The notes below the pieces were generated by a model. The model worked only from the letters and a program-made list of their open reading frames with translations, did no database searches and had not been told where the DNA came from. DNA of 64,000 nucleotides, from NCBI RefSeq assembly GCF_055900595.2, contig NZ_CM148325.1; one strand, written 5' to 3'. Positions 5,843 to 44,160 of the stretch are shown here, piece after piece. The translations under genes were made by a program, and so were the position numbers. How positions within the stretch are numbered: position 1 is the stretch's first letter; every line of letters starts with the position of its first letter.

Positions 5843-7822
5843 ATGTTTAGGTTTAACCCCTTCGTACGGGTCGGGCTGTGTTTGTCCGCTATTTCTTGTG
5901 CATGGCCTGTGTTAGCGGTCGATGATGATGGCGAAACGATGGTTGTCACTGCATCTTCCGTTGAGCAAAACCTTAAAGATGCACCCGCCAGTATCAGCGT
6001 CATTACCCAGGAAGACCTGCAGCGAAAACCGGTACAGAATCTGAAGGATGTCCTCAAAGAAGTGCCTGGCGTACAACTGACGAACGAAGGGGATAACCGT
6101 AAGGGCGTTAGTATTCGTGGTCTTGACAGCAGCTACACCCTGATTCTCGTCGACGGTAAACGCGTTAACTCCCGCAATGCCGTCTTCCGCCACAATGATT
6201 TCGATCTGAACTGGATCCCGGTCGATTCCATCGAACGTATTGAAGTGGTCCGTGGCCCGATGTCGTCGCTGTACGGTTCCGATGCGCTCGGCGGTGTCGT
6301 GAATATCATCACCAAAAAAATCGGTCAGAAATGGTCGGGTACCGTTACTGTCGATACCACCATTCAGGAACATCGCGATCGCGGTGATACCTATAACGGT
6401 CAGTTCTTTACCAGCGGACCATTAATTGACGGCGTGCTGGGAATGAAAGCTTACGGCAGCCTGGCAAAACGTGAAAAGGATGACCCACAAAACTCAACGA
6501 CCACCGATACCGGAGAAACGCCGCGTATTGACGGATTCTCCAGCCGCGACGGCAATGTGGAATTTGCCTGGACACCGAATCAAAATCACGATTTTACTGC
6601 CGGATACGGTTTTGACCGTCAGGATCGTGATTCCGACTCGCTGGACAAAAACCGCCTGGAACGTCAGAACTACTCCGTCAGCCATAATGGGCGTTGGGAT
6701 TACGGCACCAGCGAACTGAAATACTACGGTGAGAAAGTCGAAAACAAAAATCCTGGCAACAGCAGCCCGATTACTTCCGAAAGCAATACGGTCGATGGTA
6801 AATACACGTTGCCACTGACGGCGATTAATCAGTTTGTTACGGTTGGCGGTGAATGGCGTCACGACAAACTTAGCGATGCAGTAAACCTGACCGGAGGAAC
6901 AAGCTCCAAAACGTCTGCCAGCCAGTACGCGCTGTTTGTGGAAGATGAATGGCGGATCTTCGAGCCGCTGGCGCTGACGACCGGCGTGCGTATGGACGAT
7001 CACGAAACCTACGGTGAACACTGGAGTCCTCGTGCCTACCTGGTTTACAACGCCACCGACACCGTAACGGTGAAAGGGGGCTGGGCAACGGCATTTAAAG
7101 CGCCTTCTCTGTTGCAACTTAGCCCTGACTGGACGAGCAATTCCTGCCGTGGCGCATGCAAGATTGTGGGTAGCCCGGATCTGAAACCTGAAACCAGCGA
7201 AAGTTGGGAGCTGGGGCTTTACTACATGGGTGAAGAAGGCTGGCTGGAAGGGGTTGAATCCAGCGTGACCGTTTTCCGCAACGATGTAAAAGATCGTATC
7301 AGCATCAGCCGTACGTCTGACGTCAATGCTGCTCCGGGCTACCAAAACTTTGTCGGTTTTACAGCGGACGGTGTGCCAGTATTCAGCTACTACAACGTTA
7401 ACAAAGCACGTATTCAGGGCGTGGAAACCGAACTGAAAATTCCGTTCAACGATGAATGGAAACTGTCGATCAACTACACCTACAACGATGGTCGTGATGT
7501 CAGCAACGGCGAAAACAAACCGTTGTCCGATCTGCCGTTCCATACTGCTAACGGTACGCTGGACTGGAAACCGCTGGCGCTGGAAGACTGGTCATTCTAT
7601 GTTTCCGGACACTATACCGGGCAGAAACGCGCCGACAGCGCGACGGCTAAAACTCCGGGCGGTTATACCATCTGGAATACCGGCGCGGCCTGGCAGGTGA
7701 CCAAAGACGTCAAACTGCGTGCGGGCGTGCTGAACCTTGGCGACAAGGATCTCAGTCGTGACGACTACAGCTATAACGAAGACGGACGTCGTTACTTTAT
7801 GGCAGTGGATTATCGCTTCTGA
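5843..7822 (+). CDS. cirA: TonB-dependent catecholate siderophore / colicin IA-IB receptor CirA
   Basis: 659 aa ORF with signal peptide [25 protein letters not shown], TonB-box region, C-terminal ...AVDYRF. Confidence 0.95.
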
Positions 7823-20092: not shown

Positions 20093-20140
20093 TATTGCCG
20101 GATGCGCCGCATCCGGCAATCGGTGCCAAATGCCGGATGC
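20093..20140. repeat. REP-like palindromic element downstream of mglC
   Basis: GCCGGATGCGCCGCATCCGGCAA ... GCCGGATGCG motifs. Confidence 0.7.
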
Positions 20141-20150
20141 GTCTCTGATT

Positions 20151-24013: not shown

Positions 24014-24940
<927 letters not shown>

Positions 24941-25069: not shown

Positions 25070-26196
<1,127 letters not shown>

Positions 26197-26290
26197 TTAA
26201 TTCGTAAAACGTGCTACCGATCACATTAAGAATTCTCAGCATAGTTGAATTACAGGGAAGTAACATCGGGCGAGTGCCCAGTTCAGCACA

Positions 26291-27199
26291 CTAATTCTGC
26301 TGTAAAAAGTGCAGAAACTGACTTAAAGCATAAGAAGGCGTTTCGTTATTACGCCAAAACACACCGACGCTGCCTTTCTGTTCAATCTTTGGCAGGTTGA
26401 GGATCACCAGTTGCCCCTGGCTGGCATAACGTTGCGCCAGGCGTAATGACAAAATAGAGATCATATTGCTGCTTTGTAACAGGTTGGTACTGACGTTCAT
26501 CGACGCCGACTCAATCGTGTTTTCTGGCAGCATCACGCCGTGGTCTACCAGCGCATTATCAATGCTGATGCGGATGGGGGTACCTGTCGGCCAGACTATC
26601 CACCGCCAGTTAGCAAGATCATTCCAGCTGAGGGTGGCGTATTTCGCCAGTGGATGCTCAGGACGGGCGACAAAGCATACCGGCTCGGTGTAGAGCACGC
26701 GATAATTCAGCGGCAGCTGCAACGCGCGACCGCCAATTCGCCCAACCACCACATCGATAGAACCTGCCAACAGATCTTGCAGCAATGGGGTCATCACCTT
26801 CTCTTCGATATTCAGGTGTAGAGTTGGCATCTCCTTGAGCAAATGCAAAATCGCCTGGGATACGCAGTCAGTGGCGACGGGAGAACAGCCAATTTTCAGA
26901 CTGCCGACCAGTCCACCTTGTTTAAAGCGAGCCAGTTCATATTGCGATCTTTCCATGTCATTGATTAACCGTTGGGCATGTTGCAATAACAATTTGCCGC
27001 CTTCAGTAGGACGAAGTCCTTTGCTGTGCCGCTCAAAAAGTGTGAGTTCGATCTCATCTTCGAGTTGTGACAACCATTTCGACAGCGCAGGCTGGGTGAT
27101 ATTCATCATCCGCGCGACATGGGTCAGATTGCCCTGTTCACCCAGCGCCACCAGCATTTGCAGGTGATGTAGTTTTAGTTTTTGCGCCCAGTTCGCCAT
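26291..27199 (-). CDS. mhbR: LysR-family regulator of the 3-hydroxybenzoate/gentisate cluster
   Basis: HTH LTHVARMMNITQPALSKWLSQLE; start placed at MANWAQ (ATG 27197-27199) preceded by GGAGG; divergent from catabolic operon. Confidence 0.75.
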   Translation of the reverse strand: MANWAQKLKLHHLQMLVALGEQGNLTHVARMMNITQPALSKWLSQLEDEIELTLFERHSKGLRPTEGGKLLLQHAQRLINDMERSQYELARFKQGGLVGSLKIGCSPVATDCVSQAILHLLKEMPTLHLNIEEKVMTPLLQDLLAGSIDVVVGRIGGRALQLPLNYRVLYTEPVCFVARPEHPLAKYATLSWNDLANWRWIVWPTGTPIRISIDNALVDHGVMLPENTIESASMNVSTNLLQSSNMISILSLRLAQRYASQGQLVILNLPKIEQKGSVGVFWRNNETPSYALSQFLHFLQQN

Positions 27200-27325
27200 T
27201 TGCCATAACCTCCAGGTTATCTCTCTGTCCGAAATGCCATTGTACATCTCATCTCTTTAATTACATTATCGCAACATACATAAAACAAAAGAAACATCTA
27301 CCTTACCTGCACTGAGGCATTTACT

Positions 27326-28684
27326 ATGACTCAACGACGTGATTTACAAGCACTGATCGATGCTGCTCCGGTCGGCAAGATGCAGTGGCGCGTTATCATC
27401 TGCTGTTTTCTGGTGGTAATGCTCGATGGTTTTGACACCGCGGCTATCGGATTTATCGCCCCTGATATTCGCACTCACTGGCAACTCACCGCAGGCGATC
27501 TCGCCCCGCTTTTTGGCGCGGGTCTGCTGGGATTAACCGCAGGCGCACTGCTTTGTGGCCCGTTGTCCGATCGCTTTGGTCGCAAGCGGGTGATTGAGCT
27601 GTGCGTCTTTTTGTTTGGCGCGTTAAGCCTCGCCTCGGCTTTCTCACCGGATCTGCAAACGCTGGTCTTCCTGCGCTTTCTCACCGGCCTGGGTCTGGGC
27701 GGCGCGATGCCGAACACCATCACCATGACCTCGGAATATCTGCCTGCCCGCCGCCGAGGCGCGCTGGTGACGCTGATGTTTTGCGGCTTTACGCTGGGTT
27801 CGGCGTTTGGCGGGATTGTCAGCGCACAGCTGGTGCCGGTGATTGGCTGGCACGGCATTCTGGTGTTGGGTGGCGTGTTACCGCTGATGCTGTTTGTCGC
27901 ACTGCTGGTAGTTCTGCCGGAATCGCCACGCTGGCAGGTGCGCCGCCAGCTACCGCAGGCGGTGATTGCGAAAACCGTCAGCGCCATCACCCGCGAGCGT
28001 TATGTCGATACCCACTTTTATCTCATTGAATCAGCCTCCGTTACAAAAGGCAGCATTCGTCAACTGTTTATGGGACGTCAGTTACCCATCACGTTGATGT
28101 TGTGGGTAGTGTTCTTTATGAGCCTGCTGATTATTTACCTGCTCTCAAGCTGGATGCCGACGCTACTGAACCATCGCGGCATCGACCTGCAACACGCGTC
28201 CTGGGTCACCGCCGCGTTCCAGATTGGTGGTACGTTAGGCGCGCTGGCGCTGGGCGTGCTGATGGATAAGTTCAATCCTTTCCGCGTGCTGGCGCTGAGC
28301 TATGCCGTAGGCGCTGTATGCATCGTGATGATTGGCTTAAGCCAGGATGGATTATGGCTGATGGCGCTGGCGATTTTCGGCACCGGCATTGGCATTAGCG
28401 GATCTCAGGTGGGGTTGAACGCGTTGACCGCAACGCTCTACCCAACGCAAAGCCGCGCCACGGGCGTGAGCTGGTCAAACGCCGTAGGCCGCTGCGGCGC
28501 GATTGTCGGCTCGCTTTCTGGCGGCCTGATGATGGCGATGAATTTCTCTTTCGACACCCTGTTTTTCATTATCGCTGTGCCCGCGGCGATCAGTGCGGTG
28601 ATGTTAAGCCTGCTGATCACCGTGGTTCGCCAGTCGACCTCTGTCCCTGACTCACTGCCTCGCGCAGGCATTGTGAACGAATAA
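27326..28684 (+). CDS. mhbT: MFS aromatic-acid transporter (3-hydroxybenzoate/gentisate transporter-like)
   Basis: 452 aa; MFS signature [12 protein letters not shown]; first gene of operon. Confidence 0.75.
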
Positions 28685-28695
28685 GGAGCATCCTA

Positions 28696-29724
28696 ATGAC
28701 TGATAACAATCAAAAAAGCCGCGAGCAATTTTATCAGCATATTTCCGGGCAAAACCTGACCCCGCTGTGGGAGTCACTGCACCACCTGGTGCCGAAAACG
28801 CCCAACGCCAACTGTGCGCCAGCGTACTGGAATTATCAGGAGATCCGCCCGCTGCTGCTGGAGAGCGGCAGCCTGATTGGCGCGAAAGAAGCTGTGCGTC
28901 GTGTGCTGGTACTGGAAAACCCGGCGCTGCGCGGGCAGTCTTCCATCACCGCGACTTTGTATGCTGGTTTGCAACTGATCATGCCGGGCGAAGTGGCACC
29001 GAGTCATCGTCATAACCAATCGGCGCTGCGTTTTATTGTTGAAGGCAAAGGGGCATTTACCGCCGTTGATGGCGAACGCACGCCAATGAATGAGGGCGAT
29101 TTTATCCTGACCCCACAATGGCGCTGGCACGATCACGGTAACCCTGGCGACGAACCGGTTATCTGGCTCGATGGGCTGGATCTGCCATTAGTGAACACTC
29201 TGGGCTGCGGTTTTGCCGAAGATTACCCGGAAGAGCAACAACCGGTAACGCGTAAAGAGGGCGATTATCTGCCACGTTACGCTGCCAATATGTTGCCGCT
29301 GCGCCATCAGACCGGGAACTCCTCACCCATCTTTAACTACCGTTATGACCGTAGCCGCGAAGTGCTGCACGATTTAACCCGCCTGGGCGATGCCGATGAG
29401 TGGGATGGCTACAAAATGCGCTACGTCAACCCGGTCACCGGCGGCTATCCGATGCCGTCGATGGGCGCTTTCCTGCAACTGCTGCCGAAAGGGTTCGCCT
29501 CACGCGTGGCGCGTACTACTGACAGCACCATCTATCACGTGGTGGAAGGCGACGGGCAGGTCACTATCGGCAATGAAACCTTCAGCTTTAGTGCAAAAGA
29601 TCTCTTTGTGGTGCCGACCTGGCACGGCGTGTCGTTCCAGACCACGCAAGATACCGTTTTATTCAGTTTTTCGGACAGACCGGTACAAGAAGCCCTGGGG
29701 CTGTTCCGCGAAGCGCGTTATTAA
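28696..29724 (+). CDS. mhbD: Gentisate 1,2-dioxygenase (bicupin)
   Basis: 342 aa; cupin His motifs ([13 protein letters not shown]..., [10 protein letters not shown]); RBS AAGGAG. Confidence 0.8.
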
Positions 29725-29739
29725 TTTGGGAGAGAGAAA

Positions 29740-30441
29740 ATGACTCAATATGTATTCGAACCACAAGCGCCCGTTACCGTACCGGTTGTTGGCGGTGATG
29801 AACAATTCCCCGTGCGCCGCGTTTACTGCGTCGGGCGTAACTATGCCGCCCACGCCCGCGAAATGGGCTTTGATCCGGATCGTGAACCCCCCTTCTTCTT
29901 CTGCAAACCAGCAGATGCCGTTGTTCCGGTCGCCGCTGGCGAAACGCTGGCGCTGCCGTATCCGGCGCAGACCGATAACTATCATTACGAAATTGAACTG
30001 GTGGTGGCGATTGGTAAAAAGGGCAGCGATATCCCACTGGAAAAGGCCCATGAATATGTCTGGGGTTATGCCACAGGCCTTGATATGACGCGCCGGGACC
30101 GTCAAATGGAAATGCGTCAGATGGGCCGCCCGTGGGAAATCGGCAAAGCATTTGATCTCTCGGCCCCCATCGCACCGCTGCACAAAGCCAGCGAAACCGG
30201 CGGTATTGATAACGCACCAATCTGGTTACAGGTAAACGGTGAAGATCACCAGCGCAGCGATATTCGTCATCTCATCTGGTCAGTGAATGAAACCATCAGC
30301 TACCTGTCAGGCTTCTTTGAACTGCAACCGGGCGATCTGATCTTCACTGGTACGCCAGAAGGGGTGGGCCCGGTAGTGAAAGGTGATGTGATCACGGGCA
30401 ACGTCGAGGGCTTAACCCCTATCGCGGTGAAGATTGTCTGA
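29740..30441 (+). CDS. mhbH: Fumarylpyruvate hydrolase (FAH family)
   Basis: 233 aa FAH-family protein [41 protein letters not shown]. Confidence 0.75.
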
Positions 30442-30446
30442 GGTGC

Positions 30447-31094
30447 ATGATGAAGCTGTACAGTTTTTTTAATAGTTCAGCATCGTACCGGGTACGCATT
30501 GCGCTGGCGCTGAAAGGCATTAATTACCAGACCGAAGGGGTGAATATCCGTATTGGTCAGCAAAATGAACTGGCCTATCGGCGGATGAATCCTGTCGGGC
30601 TGGTGCCGACGCTGCTGACTGACGAGGGCGAGTCACTCGGTCAGTCGCTGGCGATTATTGACTGGCTGGATCGTCACTACCCGCAAGTTCCGCTGGTGCC
30701 GCAGGAAGAACCGGCCCGCAACAAGGTGCTGGAAATTGTCTATGCCATCGCTTGTGATATTCATCCATTGAATAACCTGCGCGTGCTGCGCTACCTGACC
30801 GAAGAGCTGAACGTCAGTGAAGAAGAGAAAAAACGCTGGTATGCGCACTGGATCCAGCAAGGGTTAAGCGCGGTGGAACAGCTACTGCGCCAGAGCCAGT
30901 CGGGGCAATTTTGTGTGGGTGAGACGCCGACGCTGGCAGACTGCTGCCTTGTTCCGCAGTGGGCGAACGCGCTACGTATGAACTGCGATCTGAGTGGATA
31001 TCCGCGCTGCAAAGCGGTGTACGACGCCTGCACACAACTGCCAGCGTTCATTGCCGCAGCGCCAGAAAATCAACAAGATAAAATTTCAGCCTGA
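30447..31094 (+). CDS. mhbI: Maleylpyruvate isomerase (GST-zeta-like)
   Basis: about 214 aa GST-fold MKLYSFFNSSASYRVRIALALKGINY; start could be 30447 or 30450. Confidence 0.75.
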   Translation: MMKLYSFFNSSASYRVRIALALKGINYQTEGVNIRIGQQNELAYRRMNPVGLVPTLLTDEGESLGQSLAIIDWLDRHYPQVPLVPQEEPARNKVLEIVYAIACDIHPLNNLRVLRYLTEELNVSEEEKKRWYAHWIQQGLSAVEQLLRQSQSGQFCVGETPTLADCCLVPQWANALRMNCDLSGYPRCKAVYDACTQLPAFIAAAPENQQDKISA

Positions 31095-31108
31095 CCAGGA
31101 GAACCATA

Positions 31109-32302
31109 ATGACTAAAGTGACACGCGCAGTAATTGTGGGAGGCGGGATCGGCGGTGCGGCAACTGCGCTGTCACTGGCCCGCCAGGGGATCAAAGTGGT
31201 GCTGCTGGAAAAGGCGCATGAGATCGGTGAGATCGGCGCAGGCATCCAGTTGGGGCCAAACGCGTTTTCGGCGTTGGATAGTCTTGGTGTTGGCGAAATC
31301 GCCCGCCAGCGCGCGGTGTTTACCGATCACATCACCATGATGGATGCGGTGAACGCCGAAGAAGTGGTGCGTATTGAAACCGGGCAGGCCTTTCGTGACC
31401 ATTTCGGCGGCCCTTACGCGGTGATCCATCGCGTTGATATTCATGCCTCGGTATGGGAAGCGGTACTGACGCATCCGGACGTGGAGTATCACACCTCCAC
31501 AAACGTCGTTGATATTCGCGAGACGCCGGACGATGTCACCGTTTTCGACGATCGAGGTAATAGCTGGAGCGGCGATATTTTGATTGGCTGTGATGGCGTG
31601 AAGTCAGTGGTGCGCCAGAGCTTATTAGGCGATGCGCCGCGCGTCACCGGTCATGTGGTCTACCGTGCGGTTATCGATTGTGCGGATATGCCGGAAGATT
31701 TACGTATTAATGCGCCGGTATTGTGGGCGGGTCCGCACTGTCACCTGGTGCATTATCCTTTGCGCGGCGGCAAGCAGTATAACCTGGTGGTGACATTCCA
31801 CAGTCGCCACCAGGAAGAGTGGGGCGTGAAGGATGGCAGTAAAGAGGAAGTGCTCTCTTACTTTGAAGGGATTCACCCCCGTCCGCGCCAGATGCTGGAT
31901 AAACCGACTTCATGGCGACGCTGGTCAACCGCTGACCGTGAACCGGTGGCGAAGTGGGGAACGAAGCGCATAACGCTTGTGGGCGATGCGGCTCATCCGG
32001 TGGCGCAATATATGGCACAAGGTGCCTGTATGGCGCTGGAAGATGCAGTAACGCTGGGTAAGGCGCTGGCGCAGTGTGAGGGTGATGCGGCGCAAGCTTT
32101 TGCGCTGTATGAGTCGGTACGTATTCCGCGTACCGCGCGCATCGTCTGGTCGACCCGTGAAATGGGGCGGGTTTATCACGCCGCAGGGGTAGAACGTCAG
32201 GTACGTAATCTGCTGTGGAAAGGGAAATCGCAGGCAGAGTTTTATCGCGGCATGGAGTGGCTGTACGGCTGGAAAGAAGATAACTGTCTGCAACCACGCT
32301 GA
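31109..32302 (+). CDS. mhbM: 3-hydroxybenzoate 6-hydroxylase (FAD-dependent aromatic monooxygenase)
   Basis: 397 aa; FAD-binding VIVGGGIGGAATALSLARQGIKVVLLEK and GDAAHP motif. Confidence 0.8.
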   Translation: MTKVTRAVIVGGGIGGAATALSLARQGIKVVLLEKAHEIGEIGAGIQLGPNAFSALDSLGVGEIARQRAVFTDHITMMDAVNAEEVVRIETGQAFRDHFGGPYAVIHRVDIHASVWEAVLTHPDVEYHTSTNVVDIRETPDDVTVFDDRGNSWSGDILIGCDGVKSVVRQSLLGDAPRVTGHVVYRAVIDCADMPEDLRINAPVLWAGPHCHLVHYPLRGGKQYNLVVTFHSRHQEEWGVKDGSKEEVLSYFEGIHPRPRQMLDKPTSWRRWSTADREPVAKWGTKRITLVGDAAHPVAQYMAQGACMALEDAVTLGKALAQCEGDAAQAFALYESVRIPRTARIVWSTREMGRVYHAAGVERQVRNLLWKGKSQAEFYRGMEWLYGWKEDNCLQPR

Positions 32303-32317
32303 GTACTTCTTACCCAA

Positions 32318-32378
32318 TCAGGTGCACGGACGGTCCCCTCGCCCCTTTGGGGAGAGGGTTAGGGTGAGGGGAAAAATC
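32318..32378. repeat. GC-rich imperfect palindromic repeat (BoxC-like)
   Basis: CCCCTCGCCCCTTTGGGGAGAGGGTTAGGGTGAGGGG; family assignment from memory only. Confidence 0.35.
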
Positions 32379-32420
32379 TTGCCCGAATTAATCAGTAAGT
32401 CAGTTTGTCTGCAAACACCA

Positions 32421-32448
32421 GAGGCGCTAACATAGCGCCTCATTTTTG
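32421..32448 (+). terminator. Hairpin plus T-run (terminator of mhb operon and/or IS200 left-end read-through terminator)
   Basis: GAGGCGCT-AACAT-AGCGCCTC followed by ATTTTTG. Confidence 0.65.
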
Positions 32449-32590
32449 TGCACAGAAAACCCCCAGCTAGGCTGGGGGTTCCGGAAAGCTTTCAGCTTTG
32501 AGCCAGTTATTAAAACCCCTTTTGATTTGTTAAAACACCTTGCGGTCTGGCAACTGCAAGTGTCAAACAAGAAATCAAAAGGGGGTCCCA

Positions 32591-33049
32591 ATGGGGGACG
32601 AAAAGAGCTTAGCGCACACCCGCTGGAACTGTAAATATCACATAGTTTTTGCGCCGAAATACCGAAGACTGGCGTTTTACGGAGAGAAGCGTAGGGCGAT
32701 AGGCAGTATTTTGAGAAAGCTGTGTGAGTGGAAAAGCGTACGGATTCTGGAAGCAGAGTGCTGCGCAGATCATATCCATATGCTTGTGGAAATCCCACCC
32801 AAAATGAGCGTATCCGGCTTTATGGGATATCTGAAAGGGAAAAGCAGTCTGATGCTTTACGAGCAGTTTGGGGATTTGAAATTCAAATACAGAAACAGGG
32901 AGTTCTGGTGCCGAGGGTACTATGTCGATACGGTGGGTAAGAACACGGCGAAGATACAGGACTACATAAAGCACCAGCTTGAAGAGGATAAAATGGGGGA
33001 GCAGTTATCGATTCCATATCCGGGCAGCCCGTTTACGGGCCGTAAGTAA
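32591..33049 (+). CDS. tnpA: IS200 transposase TnpA (HUH/Y1)
   Basis: MGDEKSLAHTRWNCKYHIVFAPKYRRLAFYGEKRRAIGSILRKLCEWKSVRILEAECCADHIHMLVEIPPK...; ORF track start lies further upstream. Confidence 0.9.
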   Translation: MGDEKSLAHTRWNCKYHIVFAPKYRRLAFYGEKRRAIGSILRKLCEWKSVRILEAECCADHIHMLVEIPPKMSVSGFMGYLKGKSSLMLYEQFGDLKFKYRNREFWCRGYYVDTVGKNTAKIQDYIKHQLEEDKMGEQLSIPYPGSPFTGRK

Positions 33050-33173
33050 CGAAGTTGAATGCAAATGTCAGATCGTATGCGCCTGTTAGGGCACGGCTGG
33101 TAACAGAGCCTTACAGGCGCATTTGAAAAACCTCCGGCTATGCCGGAGGATATTTATTTTTGCGGGTGATGAT

Positions 33174-34121
33174 ATGCGTGTGTTACTGGCACCGATGGAG
33201 GGTGTACTCGACTCTCTGGTGCGTGAATTGCTGACCGAAGTTAACGACTACGATCTGTGCATCACCGAGTTTGTCCGCGTGGTGGATCAACTGCTGCCGG
33301 TAAAAGTTTTTCATCGCATTTGCCCGGAGCTACAAAACGCCAGCCGAACGCCATCCGGTACGCTGGTGCGCGTGCAATTGCTGGGGCAGTTCCCACAATG
33401 GCTGGCAGAGAACGCCGCCCGTGCGGTGGAGTTAGGTTCCTGGGGTGTGGATCTTAATTGCGGCTGTCCGTCGAAAACGGTTAACGGTAGCGGCGGCGGG
33501 GCGACACTACTCAAAGATCCTGAACTCATCTACCAGGGTGCAAAAGCGATGCGTGAAGTTGTACCGGCGCATTTGCCCGTCAGTGTGAAAGTGCGTCTGG
33601 GCTGGGACAGCGGTGAGAAGAAATTTGAAATCGCCGATGCGGTTCAACAGGCTGGCGCTACGGAGTTGGTGGTGCATGGGCGGACAAAAGAGCAGGGGTA
33701 CCGCGCGGAGCATATTGACTGGCAGGCGATTGGCGAGATTCGCCAACGGCTGAATATTCCGGTGATTGCCAACGGTGAAATCTGGGACTGGCAGAGCGCG
33801 CAACAGTGTATGGCGATCAGCGGCTGTGACGCGGTGATGATTGGTCGCGGAGCGCTCAATATTCCCAATCTGAGCCGAGTGGTAAAATATAACGAACCGC
33901 GAATGCCGTGGCCGGAGGTGGTTGCTTTGCTACAAAAATATACCCGTCTGGAAAAGCAGGGCGATACTGGGTTATATCACGTTGCGCGGATTAAACAGTG
34001 GTTGAGTTATTTGCGTAAAGAATACGATGAAGCAACGGAATTATTTCAGCATGTTCGGGTGTTGAATAATTCCCTTGATATTGCAAGGGCTATTCAGACC
34101 ATTGATATCGAGAAACTCTAA
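33174..34121 (+). CDS. dusC: tRNA-dihydrouridine synthase C
   Basis: [36 protein letters not shown]... (315 aa from ATG 33174); Dus family. Confidence 0.92.
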
Positions 34122-34493
34122 GAAACCATAGTGATGTTTTTTGACAATGTGTTAGCTCTTTATCAATAGGCCGCACGGTTGTTTGGTGGCGTCAAAATCG
34201 CCGAGGCGTTCCCTGAAGGCCGGGGCAGCCCATATGGATGTGGGCTGAGGGCGCGTTTTACAGGGATGTTACCTCGCGCCCGACCCGGTAGCCGTAAGGG
34301 ATAAGCCGAGGGCACCGCGCAGCGGCGATTTTGTTCGCCAGAGCCCGGGGGTGCAGGGGGCGGCGGCGACTGGTCGCCCCCTGCGCGCTCCTTGCGCTAG
34401 TGATTATATGAAGCAATGCACATGACAGGAGCGCAACAGGATGAGAGACTGAAATATTCTCGTTATTTTCGGATCTGATGACGTTAATTAATT

Positions 34494-34577
34494 TTAAAAT
34501 ATCATCTTAAATACGCCAGTCACCACCAGTAGTCCAATCAGGAAAATAATCAATACAGCCCAGAGTATAATTTTCAT
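34494..34577 (-). CDS. yohP: Small membrane protein YohP (27 aa)
   Basis: Minus-strand ATG..TAA encodes MKIILWAVLIIFLIGLLVVTGVFKMIF, matching the recalled YohP sequence; below ORF-track size cutoff. Confidence 0.85.
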   Translation of the reverse strand: MKIILWAVLIIFLIGLLVVTGVFKMIF

Positions 34578-37051: not shown

Positions 37052-37091
37052 CACAGTGAGGTGCGTGGTTATTTCAATGGGTAATATTTGG

Positions 37092-37175
37092 TAGGCATGA
37101 TAAGACGTGCAAGCGTCGCATCAGGCATGGTGCGACGGATGTCGGATGCGGCGCAAACCGCCTTATCCGAGGCAA
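37092..37175. repeat. REP-like palindromic elements between yohF and yohD
   Basis: GCATCAGGCATGGTGCGACGGATGTCGGATGCGGCGCAAACCGCCTTATCCGAGGC. Confidence 0.65.
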
Positions 37176-39624: not shown

Positions 39625-39795
39625 GTAGGCAGGATAAGGCGTTTACGCCGCATCAGGCATTCGGAGCACAATGCCTGATGCGATGCTTGCGCATCTTATC
39701 AGGCCTACAAACGTGACGCGTCCGTAGGCAGGATAAGGCGTTCACGCCGCATCCGGCATTCGGTGCACGATGCCTGATGCGATGCTTCTATTTGC
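39625..39795. repeat. Cluster of REP elements (BIME-like) between pbpG and dld
   Basis: Repeated GCCTGATGCGATGCTT / GGCAGGATAAGGCGTTTACGCCGCATC units in alternating orientation. Confidence 0.85.
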
Positions 39796-44029: not shown

Positions 44030-44160
44030 AGTCAGGGCGCGACGTCTGCGCCCTTTGCCTGATGCGTTGCGCTTATCAGGCCTTCAGGGGTTTTTAACCT
44101 CTTGAATTTTCGCTGTTTGTAGGCTGGATAAGGCGTTTACGCCGCATCCGGCAAGAAACG
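44030..44160. repeat. Terminator hairpin plus REP elements downstream of bglX
   Basis: GGGCGCGACGTCTGCGCCC hairpin; CCTGATGCGTTGCGCTTATCAGGCC; GTAGGCTGGATAAGGCGTTTACGCCGCATCCGGCA. Confidence 0.8.

Follow-up and report, generated by a model that had tools for sequence, protein, structure and literature searches.

Within the window, that is, the whole stretch of 64,000 nucleotides analysed here (contig NZ_CM148325.1), a GC-rich palindromic sequence lies in non-coding, intergenic DNA between the stop codon of mhbM (32302) and dusC. The gene mhbM, whose identical counterpart RefSeq names 3-hydroxybenzoate 6-monooxygenase, is the last gene of an accessory module (window ~26000-32415) that comprises a LysR regulator, mhbT, gtdA, a fumarylacetoacetate hydrolase-family gene, maiA and mhbM itself; compared with K-12, these six genes stand between yohJ and dusC and replace about 120 nt of K-12 intergenic sequence. 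An earlier reading made from the letters alone, herein called the sequence-only reading, had placed the palindrome between mhbM and an IS200 element at 32318-32378, and this placement is confirmed by the end of the open reading frame at 32302 and the start of IS200C at about 32448. The features of the locus, all on the plus strand, are as follows.

31109-32302, plus strand: mhbM, 3-hydroxybenzoate 6-monooxygenase, a 397-aa FAD monooxygenase
32322-32373, plus strand: full BoxC unit of about 52 nt, with the left flank GTGCAC-GGAC-GGTC, the 36-nt core, and AA on the right
32336-32371, plus strand: TMECO/PIT core, type A with one mismatch, CCCTCGCCCCTTTGGGGAGAGGGTTAGGGTGAGGGG, recognised by the consensus regex and by identity with MG1655 copies
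32336-32344, plus strand: block 1, the C-rich 9-mer CCCTCGCCC, the pyrimidine strand of the hairpin
32345-32349, plus strand: loop 1, CTTTG, the most variable part among copies
32350-32358, plus strand: block 2, the G-rich 9-mer GGGAGAGGG, complementary to block 1 in 8/9 positions, with one G/A mismatch ("mm")
32359-32361, plus strand: loop 2, TTA (type A; type B has CCG)
32362-32371, plus strand: block 3, the G-rich 9-mer GGGTGAGGG (32362-32370) and an invariant G
32335-32371, plus strand: the string quoted by the sequence-only reading, CCCCTCGCCCC (32335-32345), TTT, GGGGAGAGGG (32349-32358), TT and AGGGTGAGGGG (32361-32371)
32421-32447, plus strand: terminator-like hairpin GAGGCGCTAACATAGCGCCTC (32421-32441 in the terminator scan) with its T-run (T7)
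~32448-33159, plus strand: IS200C, 712 bp, with ends ambiguous by a few T, delimited by comparison with the empty site (alleles L001/L002) and recognised by Y1_Tnp and STnc490

The distance from the mhbM stop codon is 19 nt to the unit and 33 nt to its core. On the right side of the module, the sequence becomes homologous to K-12 again from about window 32415, shortly ahead of the hairpin GAGGCGCTAACATAGCGCCTC; the BoxC is therefore part of the accessory module and lies some 45 nt within its right boundary. The terminator-like hairpin, 49 nt downstream of the BoxC stem, is in turn part of the K-12-type backbone upstream of dusC and not of BoxC. An arrangement with a BoxC at both ends of the module was considered and rejected, the left junction next to yohJ having none. 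As a separate observation, the strong hairpin and its T7 run precede the start codon of dusC by only about 10 nt and have the orientation of that gene (window 32421-32447 and 33160-33176); they are present also in K-12 (6386-6440 of the fetched locus, minus strand), where the upstream yohJ is divergent, and may be an attenuator, a leftover or a landing pad for IS200.

As to its architecture, window 32322-32376 reads GTGCACGGACGGTCCCCTCGCCCCTTTGGGGAGAGGGTTAGGGTGAGGGGAAAAA, and the palindrome quoted earlier as CCCCTCGCCCC-TTT-GGGGAGAGGG-TT-AGGGTGAGGGG is real, being found exactly at 32335-32371. The repeat search detects an outer inverted repeat, TCCCCTCGCCC and GGGTGAGGGGA, at 32334-32344 and 32362-32372 with 91% complementarity, while block 1 CCCTCGCCC is complementary in 8/9 positions to each of GGGAGAGGG and GGGTGAGGG. 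Since a single C block matches both G blocks, the two pairings are alternatives and not nested; of the "nested imperfect inverted repeats" that had been described, the inverted repeats thus stand and the nesting has to be replaced by alternative pairings in a triplex-type arrangement. In fact the window copy has the same layout as the published three-block "intrastrand triplex".

The family of this element has been named several times, from BoxC in the 1990s to PIT (potential intrastrand triplex) in 2000 and TMECO in the work of Holder et al. (2015, PMC4666352), where 23 copies are catalogued in MG1655 and a second loop of TTA or CCG separates type A from type B. The consensus of that study, 5'-CCCTCNCCC-N3-6-GGGNGAGGG-N3-GGGNGAGGG[G/T/C]-3', has a single match in the 64-kb window, at 32336-32370 on the plus strand and with G at 32371. 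Moreover, the 36-nt core CCCTCGCCCCTTTGGGGAGAGGGTTAGGGTGAGGGG (32336-32371) is letter for letter that of MG1655 copies 7, 11 and 15 in Table 1 of PMC4666352, and the window copy is classed as type "A mm", with TTA as loop 2 and one G/A mismatch between blocks 1 and 2. The homology to K-12 copies was checked and holds beyond the 9-mer blocks. Even the non-folding control oligonucleotide of that study corresponds to the window sequence with four G-to-C changes (PMC4666352). An independent survey also counts BoxC among the known repeat families of E. coli, quoting a size of 56 bp and 32 copies from the literature (PMC2267715). Sharing with BoxC/PIT/TMECO type A the core, the consensus, the TTA of loop 2, the flanks, the intergenic site and the multi-copy chromosomal spread, the palindrome is, with essential certainty, an ordinary copy of this already known family. 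The sequence-only reading, which had cautiously called it "BoxC-like" and of an E. coli intergenic family, was therefore right, as the identity with copies 7, 11 and 15 and the multi-copy result below attest. The element itself shows no difference from the catalogued BoxC; what differs is that the window copy sits in an accessory mhb module absent from K-12, and therefore lies outside the 23 K-12 loci of PMC4666352. In the RefSeq annotation the window BoxC is unannotated, so that an annotation as a BoxC/TMECO repeat is due, and labels such as terminator, sRNA or small ORF are misreadings.

The extent of the unit was drawn from a flank profile, for which the window copy and 10 fetched K-12 loci with type-A copies were aligned in register. 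In these 11 aligned copies the flanks are conserved from -14 to +3 around the core, with the left consensus G-GC-CG-AC-GGTC, in which positions -5, -3, -2 and -1 are invariant, and with an invariant G on the right followed by AA in 9/11 copies. Paralogous megablast matches obtained with a longer query cover the window from 32320/32322 to 32373/32377. The profile gives a unit of about 52 nt, both it and the megablast matches agree with the classical 56-bp BoxC, and the coordinates 32318-32378 proposed from sequence alone agree with them as well.

A BLASTN count of copies in E. coli genomes, as the sequence-only reading had suggested, finds a multi-copy and not a single-copy sequence: of 5426 complete E. 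coli genomes, 5424 are hit by window 32300-32400, at 17 places each in the median and 31 at most, and 84,929 of all the places are chromosomal as against 51 on plasmids. The mhb module itself was observed at 26 places on plasmids. For the 23-nt G-rich half with 3 mismatches allowed, 100 shuffles of the window give 0 matches, and the 64-kb window holds no second match. In the wider collections, matches are almost nil among 50,697 phage records (5) and few among 72,556 plasmid records (448), several of these plasmid records being of chromosome size. For example, several of the "plasmid" records with BoxC (NZ_OL790696.1, NZ_CP141089.1 and others) are E. coli replicons of 4.7-4.9 Mb, and the "Campylobacter phage" records MG065686.1 and MG065691.1 (174 kb) have three BoxC-like places each at 94% identity. 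These two phage records and the plasmid records of 4.7-4.9 Mb seem to reflect contaminated or mislabelled database entries and not a biological presence of BoxC.

Beyond E. coli, the consensus pattern was scanned against a collection with one genome per species, in which at least 3 organisms matched, a figure that speaks of breadth and is not a taxonomic census. In the betaproteobacterium Mitsuaria chitosanitabida, at least 150 copies of the three-block core are present in the fetched loci, many of them as inverted doublets; among the matches listed, 13 copies belong to a Methylomirabilota MAG and 3 to Ca. Contendobacter. Across these taxa the three blocks are alike and the loops and flanks are species-specific, again among the matches listed: the Mitsuaria copies have CT on the left, a fixed loop GCTTGC and the right flank TCTTCGGG, those of E. 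coli GGTC...TTA...GAA. Microcystis is another genome rich in copies. The Mitsuaria doublets are often 80-230 nt apart, an arrangement that is REPIN-like, and in K-12 inverted doublets occur at 5 sites (PMC4666352). These distant matches agree with the published report of the G/C-rich motif in more than 260 prokaryotic genomes (PMC4666352). The family poses a minor puzzle, in that its 36-nt motif of three blocks is kept in taxa as distant as E. coli, Burkholderiales and Methylomirabilota.

With regard to folding, ViennaRNA, by which only hairpins are modelled, predicts an RNA hairpin of -31.1 kcal/mol for 68 nt with an 11-pair G/C-rich stem, and a DNA hairpin of -10.1 kcal/mol for 55 nt. Block 3 is the preferred Watson-Crick partner of block 1 in these predicted hairpins, whereas it is the third strand in the published triplex model (PMC4666352). 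Compared with dinucleotide-preserving shuffles, the folding energy shows no significant gain (z = -1.75 for the RNA, -1.60 for the opposite strand and -1.0 for the DNA), and therefore the statement that the element is more than chance rests on its recurrence and copy number. Experimentally, CD and NMR support a purine-motif intrastrand triplex in single-stranded oligonucleotides of both type A and type B in vitro, and the folded element stops DNA polymerase in vitro; its duplex form is B-DNA, a stable triplex in vivo was undetected by DMS footprinting, and PIT elements were found without effect on promoter, terminator or conjugation (all PMC4666352). A comparison with H-DNA, i.e. triplex-forming mirror repeats, is instructive: both have purine and pyrimidine blocks able to make G*G:C triplets and both are linked to polymerase pausing and instability, whereas BoxC is an intrastrand three-block arrangement for which one strand suffices and H-DNA is a long homopurine mirror repeat formed under supercoiling.

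The variation of the locus among strains was then considered. The 3' end of mhbM is present in 612 of the 5426 genomes, and the window-type downstream sequence, in the yohJ-dusC context, in 366, so that mhbM has another continuation in about 246. In strains such as 2013C-4282, the same 101 nt (32300-32400) are 100% identical, and dusC follows mhbM after 160 nt without an insertion sequence. Two alleles of the dusC context, L001 and L002, are 5.3% diverged; all three 9-mer blocks are the same in both, the differences within the core affecting loop 1 and the last G. In this pair, local hypervariability was not seen at BoxC, the 7 differences per 100 nt being unremarkable against a regional mean of 5.1 and a maximum of 14. 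Strain E100341 carries the whole mhb module in a different, IS-rich island next to yfjI-type genes. There the sequence is homologous to the window (91% over the query's first 155 nt) only as far as the interior of a decayed BoxC, so that what remains is the left flank and a decayed first half, GCGCACGGGTGATCTCCTTGCCCTTCGGAGAGGAG, followed by unrelated sequence. Such a breakpoint is consistent with the published association with instability, in which loci carrying the element were more variable than control intergenic sites in 56 E. coli genomes (PMC4666352), as one anecdote without statistical support. The window copy fits the consensus perfectly, even though strains differ by 5-9% in the module that hosts it.

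The neighbouring IS200C deserves separate attention. Its tnpA (32591-33049) is matched by Pfam Y1_Tnp with E=8e-37, and its leader at 32458-32581 by Rfam STnc490 over its full length. The insertion is found within the T-run that follows the terminator-like hairpin, at 76 nt from the end of the BoxC core, and none of the complete RefSeq genomes of E. coli has the exact junction of mhb module and IS200 seen in the window. That T-run also harbours IS200C in strains with neither mhb module nor BoxC, namely B19374 and 98192 (L135, 2460-3260, and L136), and in one of these two the T-run is split differently, which to judge from the sequences points to probably independent insertions. In strain 7/2, IS200C stands between creD and arcA after another hairpin, GGCGCTAA..AGCGCC, with T8. 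A targeting of IS200 driven by BoxC is thus rejected, as the same T-run is used without BoxC and a different hairpin with its T-run at creD-arcA; since IS200C lands in hairpin T-runs without BoxC, the target is the terminator-like T-tract and not BoxC.

As for what the element does at this place, we hold with high confidence that it is a BoxC copy as a dispersed non-coding repeat, functionless or selfish and prone to instability, which would be carried passively in the 3' untranslated region of mhb. Its core statement of no function and proneness to instability, taken by itself, receives a modest preference. Mechanistically, whenever one strand becomes single, in the lagging-strand template, a transcription bubble or mRNA, the C block would pair with one of the G blocks as a hairpin, and in DNA the other G block could dock on this hairpin to give a purine-motif triple helix. 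A transient hairpin or triplex in single-stranded DNA may then render its neighbourhood prone to small deletions, decay and rearrangement joints. At the window locus, the element would be passively transcribed in the 3' untranslated stretch between the mhbM stop and the terminator-like hairpin, and the window BoxC probably has no locus-specific regulatory role. To our knowledge, no function has ever been proven for BoxC, and in the literature searched there were no functional papers on BoxC/PIT/TMECO later than PMC4666352 (2015). "Functionless" is accordingly a default and not a demonstration, and the conservation of the three blocks across phyla is hard to reconcile with pure neutrality. What the locus adds to the published link with local genome instability is one module boundary inside a BoxC.

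Several other explanations have to be weighed against this passive carriage of a repeat, and a positive test supports none of those that invoke an mRNA stabiliser, a REPIN-like element or a G-quadruplex. That BoxC is a non-autonomous mobile element of the REPIN or MITE kind, copied by a trans-acting enzyme, or is kept uniform by gene conversion, would account for loops and flanks that are common to the copies of one genome and different between E. coli and Mitsuaria, for the inverted doublets frequent in Mitsuaria and present at 5 sites in K-12, and for the perfect consensus copy in a 5-9% diverged module. However, the alignment of 11 copies shows neither target-site duplications nor terminal inverted repeats, we know of no associated transposase, and the possibility remains an unlikely one. 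In addition, the published survey found no association with mobile elements, and most loci are stable across E. coli strains (PMC4666352). The perfect consensus despite the divergence of the module, together with a module that ends in BoxC in both chromosomal contexts with homology breaking inside the element, is also the reason to consider that BoxC copies serve as active joints for assembling accessory gene modules. This we regard as improbable; if true, it would be in line with exchange among dispersed BoxC copies by recombination or gene conversion, or with a REPIN-like mobilisation by some enzyme, and it could also account for the three-block core being kept across phyla. Another proposal starts from the transcript. 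Some REP elements have been shown to protect transcripts from 3'-to-5' exonucleases, and BoxC as a 3'-UTR RNA hairpin might likewise shield the mhb transcript from them: as the core follows the mhbM stop by 33 nt and precedes the terminator-like hairpin, sense transcription is expected, the 11-pair stem is predicted to be strong (the above -31.1 kcal/mol), and in 10/11 loci (window and 10 of K-12) the element is downstream of at least one stop codon. Yet the RNA fold is no better than that of shuffles (z = -1.75), orientation is uninformative in convergent intergenic regions, one of the four co-directional cases is antisense (pstA-pstB), and the published survey has no orientation or distance bias and no transcription effect (PMC4666352), which leaves the shielding doubtful, slightly more so than the mobile element.

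Alternatively, the G-rich strand, whether as DNA or as mhb mRNA, could adopt a G-quadruplex as the relevant structure instead of the hairpin or triplex. In fact the pattern of four G-tracts of at least 3 with loops of 1-7 nt is matched at 32349-32371 (GGGGAGAGGGTTAGGGTGAGGGG), by four G-tracts with 3-nt loops, as the sole canonical G-quadruplex motif in the 64-kb window; nevertheless the NMR imino-proton pattern of the full oligonucleotide was argued to favour a triplex over a quadruplex (PMC4666352), and the G blocks are subject to competition from the complementary C block beside them, so that we give this structure little chance. An intrinsic terminator of the mhb operon would be in keeping with a G/C-rich stem just downstream of the last gene and is nonetheless very improbable and rejected here, as the stem is followed by AAAAATC and no T-run, the scan calls a proper hairpin with T-run at 32421-32447 instead, and PIT elements were without terminator activity (PMC4666352). 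Finally, there is a 41-aa ATG ORF on the minus strand (32318-32443) that spans the element, and one might take the palindrome for part of it or for a product of chance; both are scarcely credible, for the paralogous copies count in thousands with none arising by chance in shuffles, so that chance is already refuted by the copy number, and the ORF would be frameshifted by the indels of one base that distinguish allele L001 from L002 within it.

Other known RNA and repeat families were also searched for at the locus. With the covariance models of Rfam 15 at E<=1 over window 31000-34500, no family is detected at BoxC, and only STnc490 and a weak AgvB appear elsewhere. The latter, an sRNA model match at 34411-34471 on the minus strand after dusC, scores 22.9 bits compared with a gathering score of 56 (E=0.31) and is most likely a chance match. 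The repeats most easily confused with BoxC are REP/BIME, which are likewise short, intergenic, imperfectly palindromic, multi-copy and often downstream of genes, whereas their sequences are unrelated to it. Furthermore, REPs have a dedicated RAYT transposase and known protein partners, while for BoxC we know of neither transposase nor protein partner. A fuzzy search with the REP consensus GCC[G/T]GATGCG[G/A]CG[C/T]...CTTATC[C/A]GGCCTAC finds none at 32318-32378, and a REP/BIME identity of the palindrome is rejected. Elsewhere in the window, clusters of REP/BIME matches on both strands, which are ordinary REP elements, are observed in other intergenic regions, at 20097-20145, 24015-24048, 37091-37154, 39625-39785 and 44057-44152. 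In the K-12 yohJ-dusC region, a different small hairpin, GAGAGGGATTGCAGTTTGCAGCAATCCCTCT (6440-6480 of the fetched locus), is observed in the place of the mhb module.
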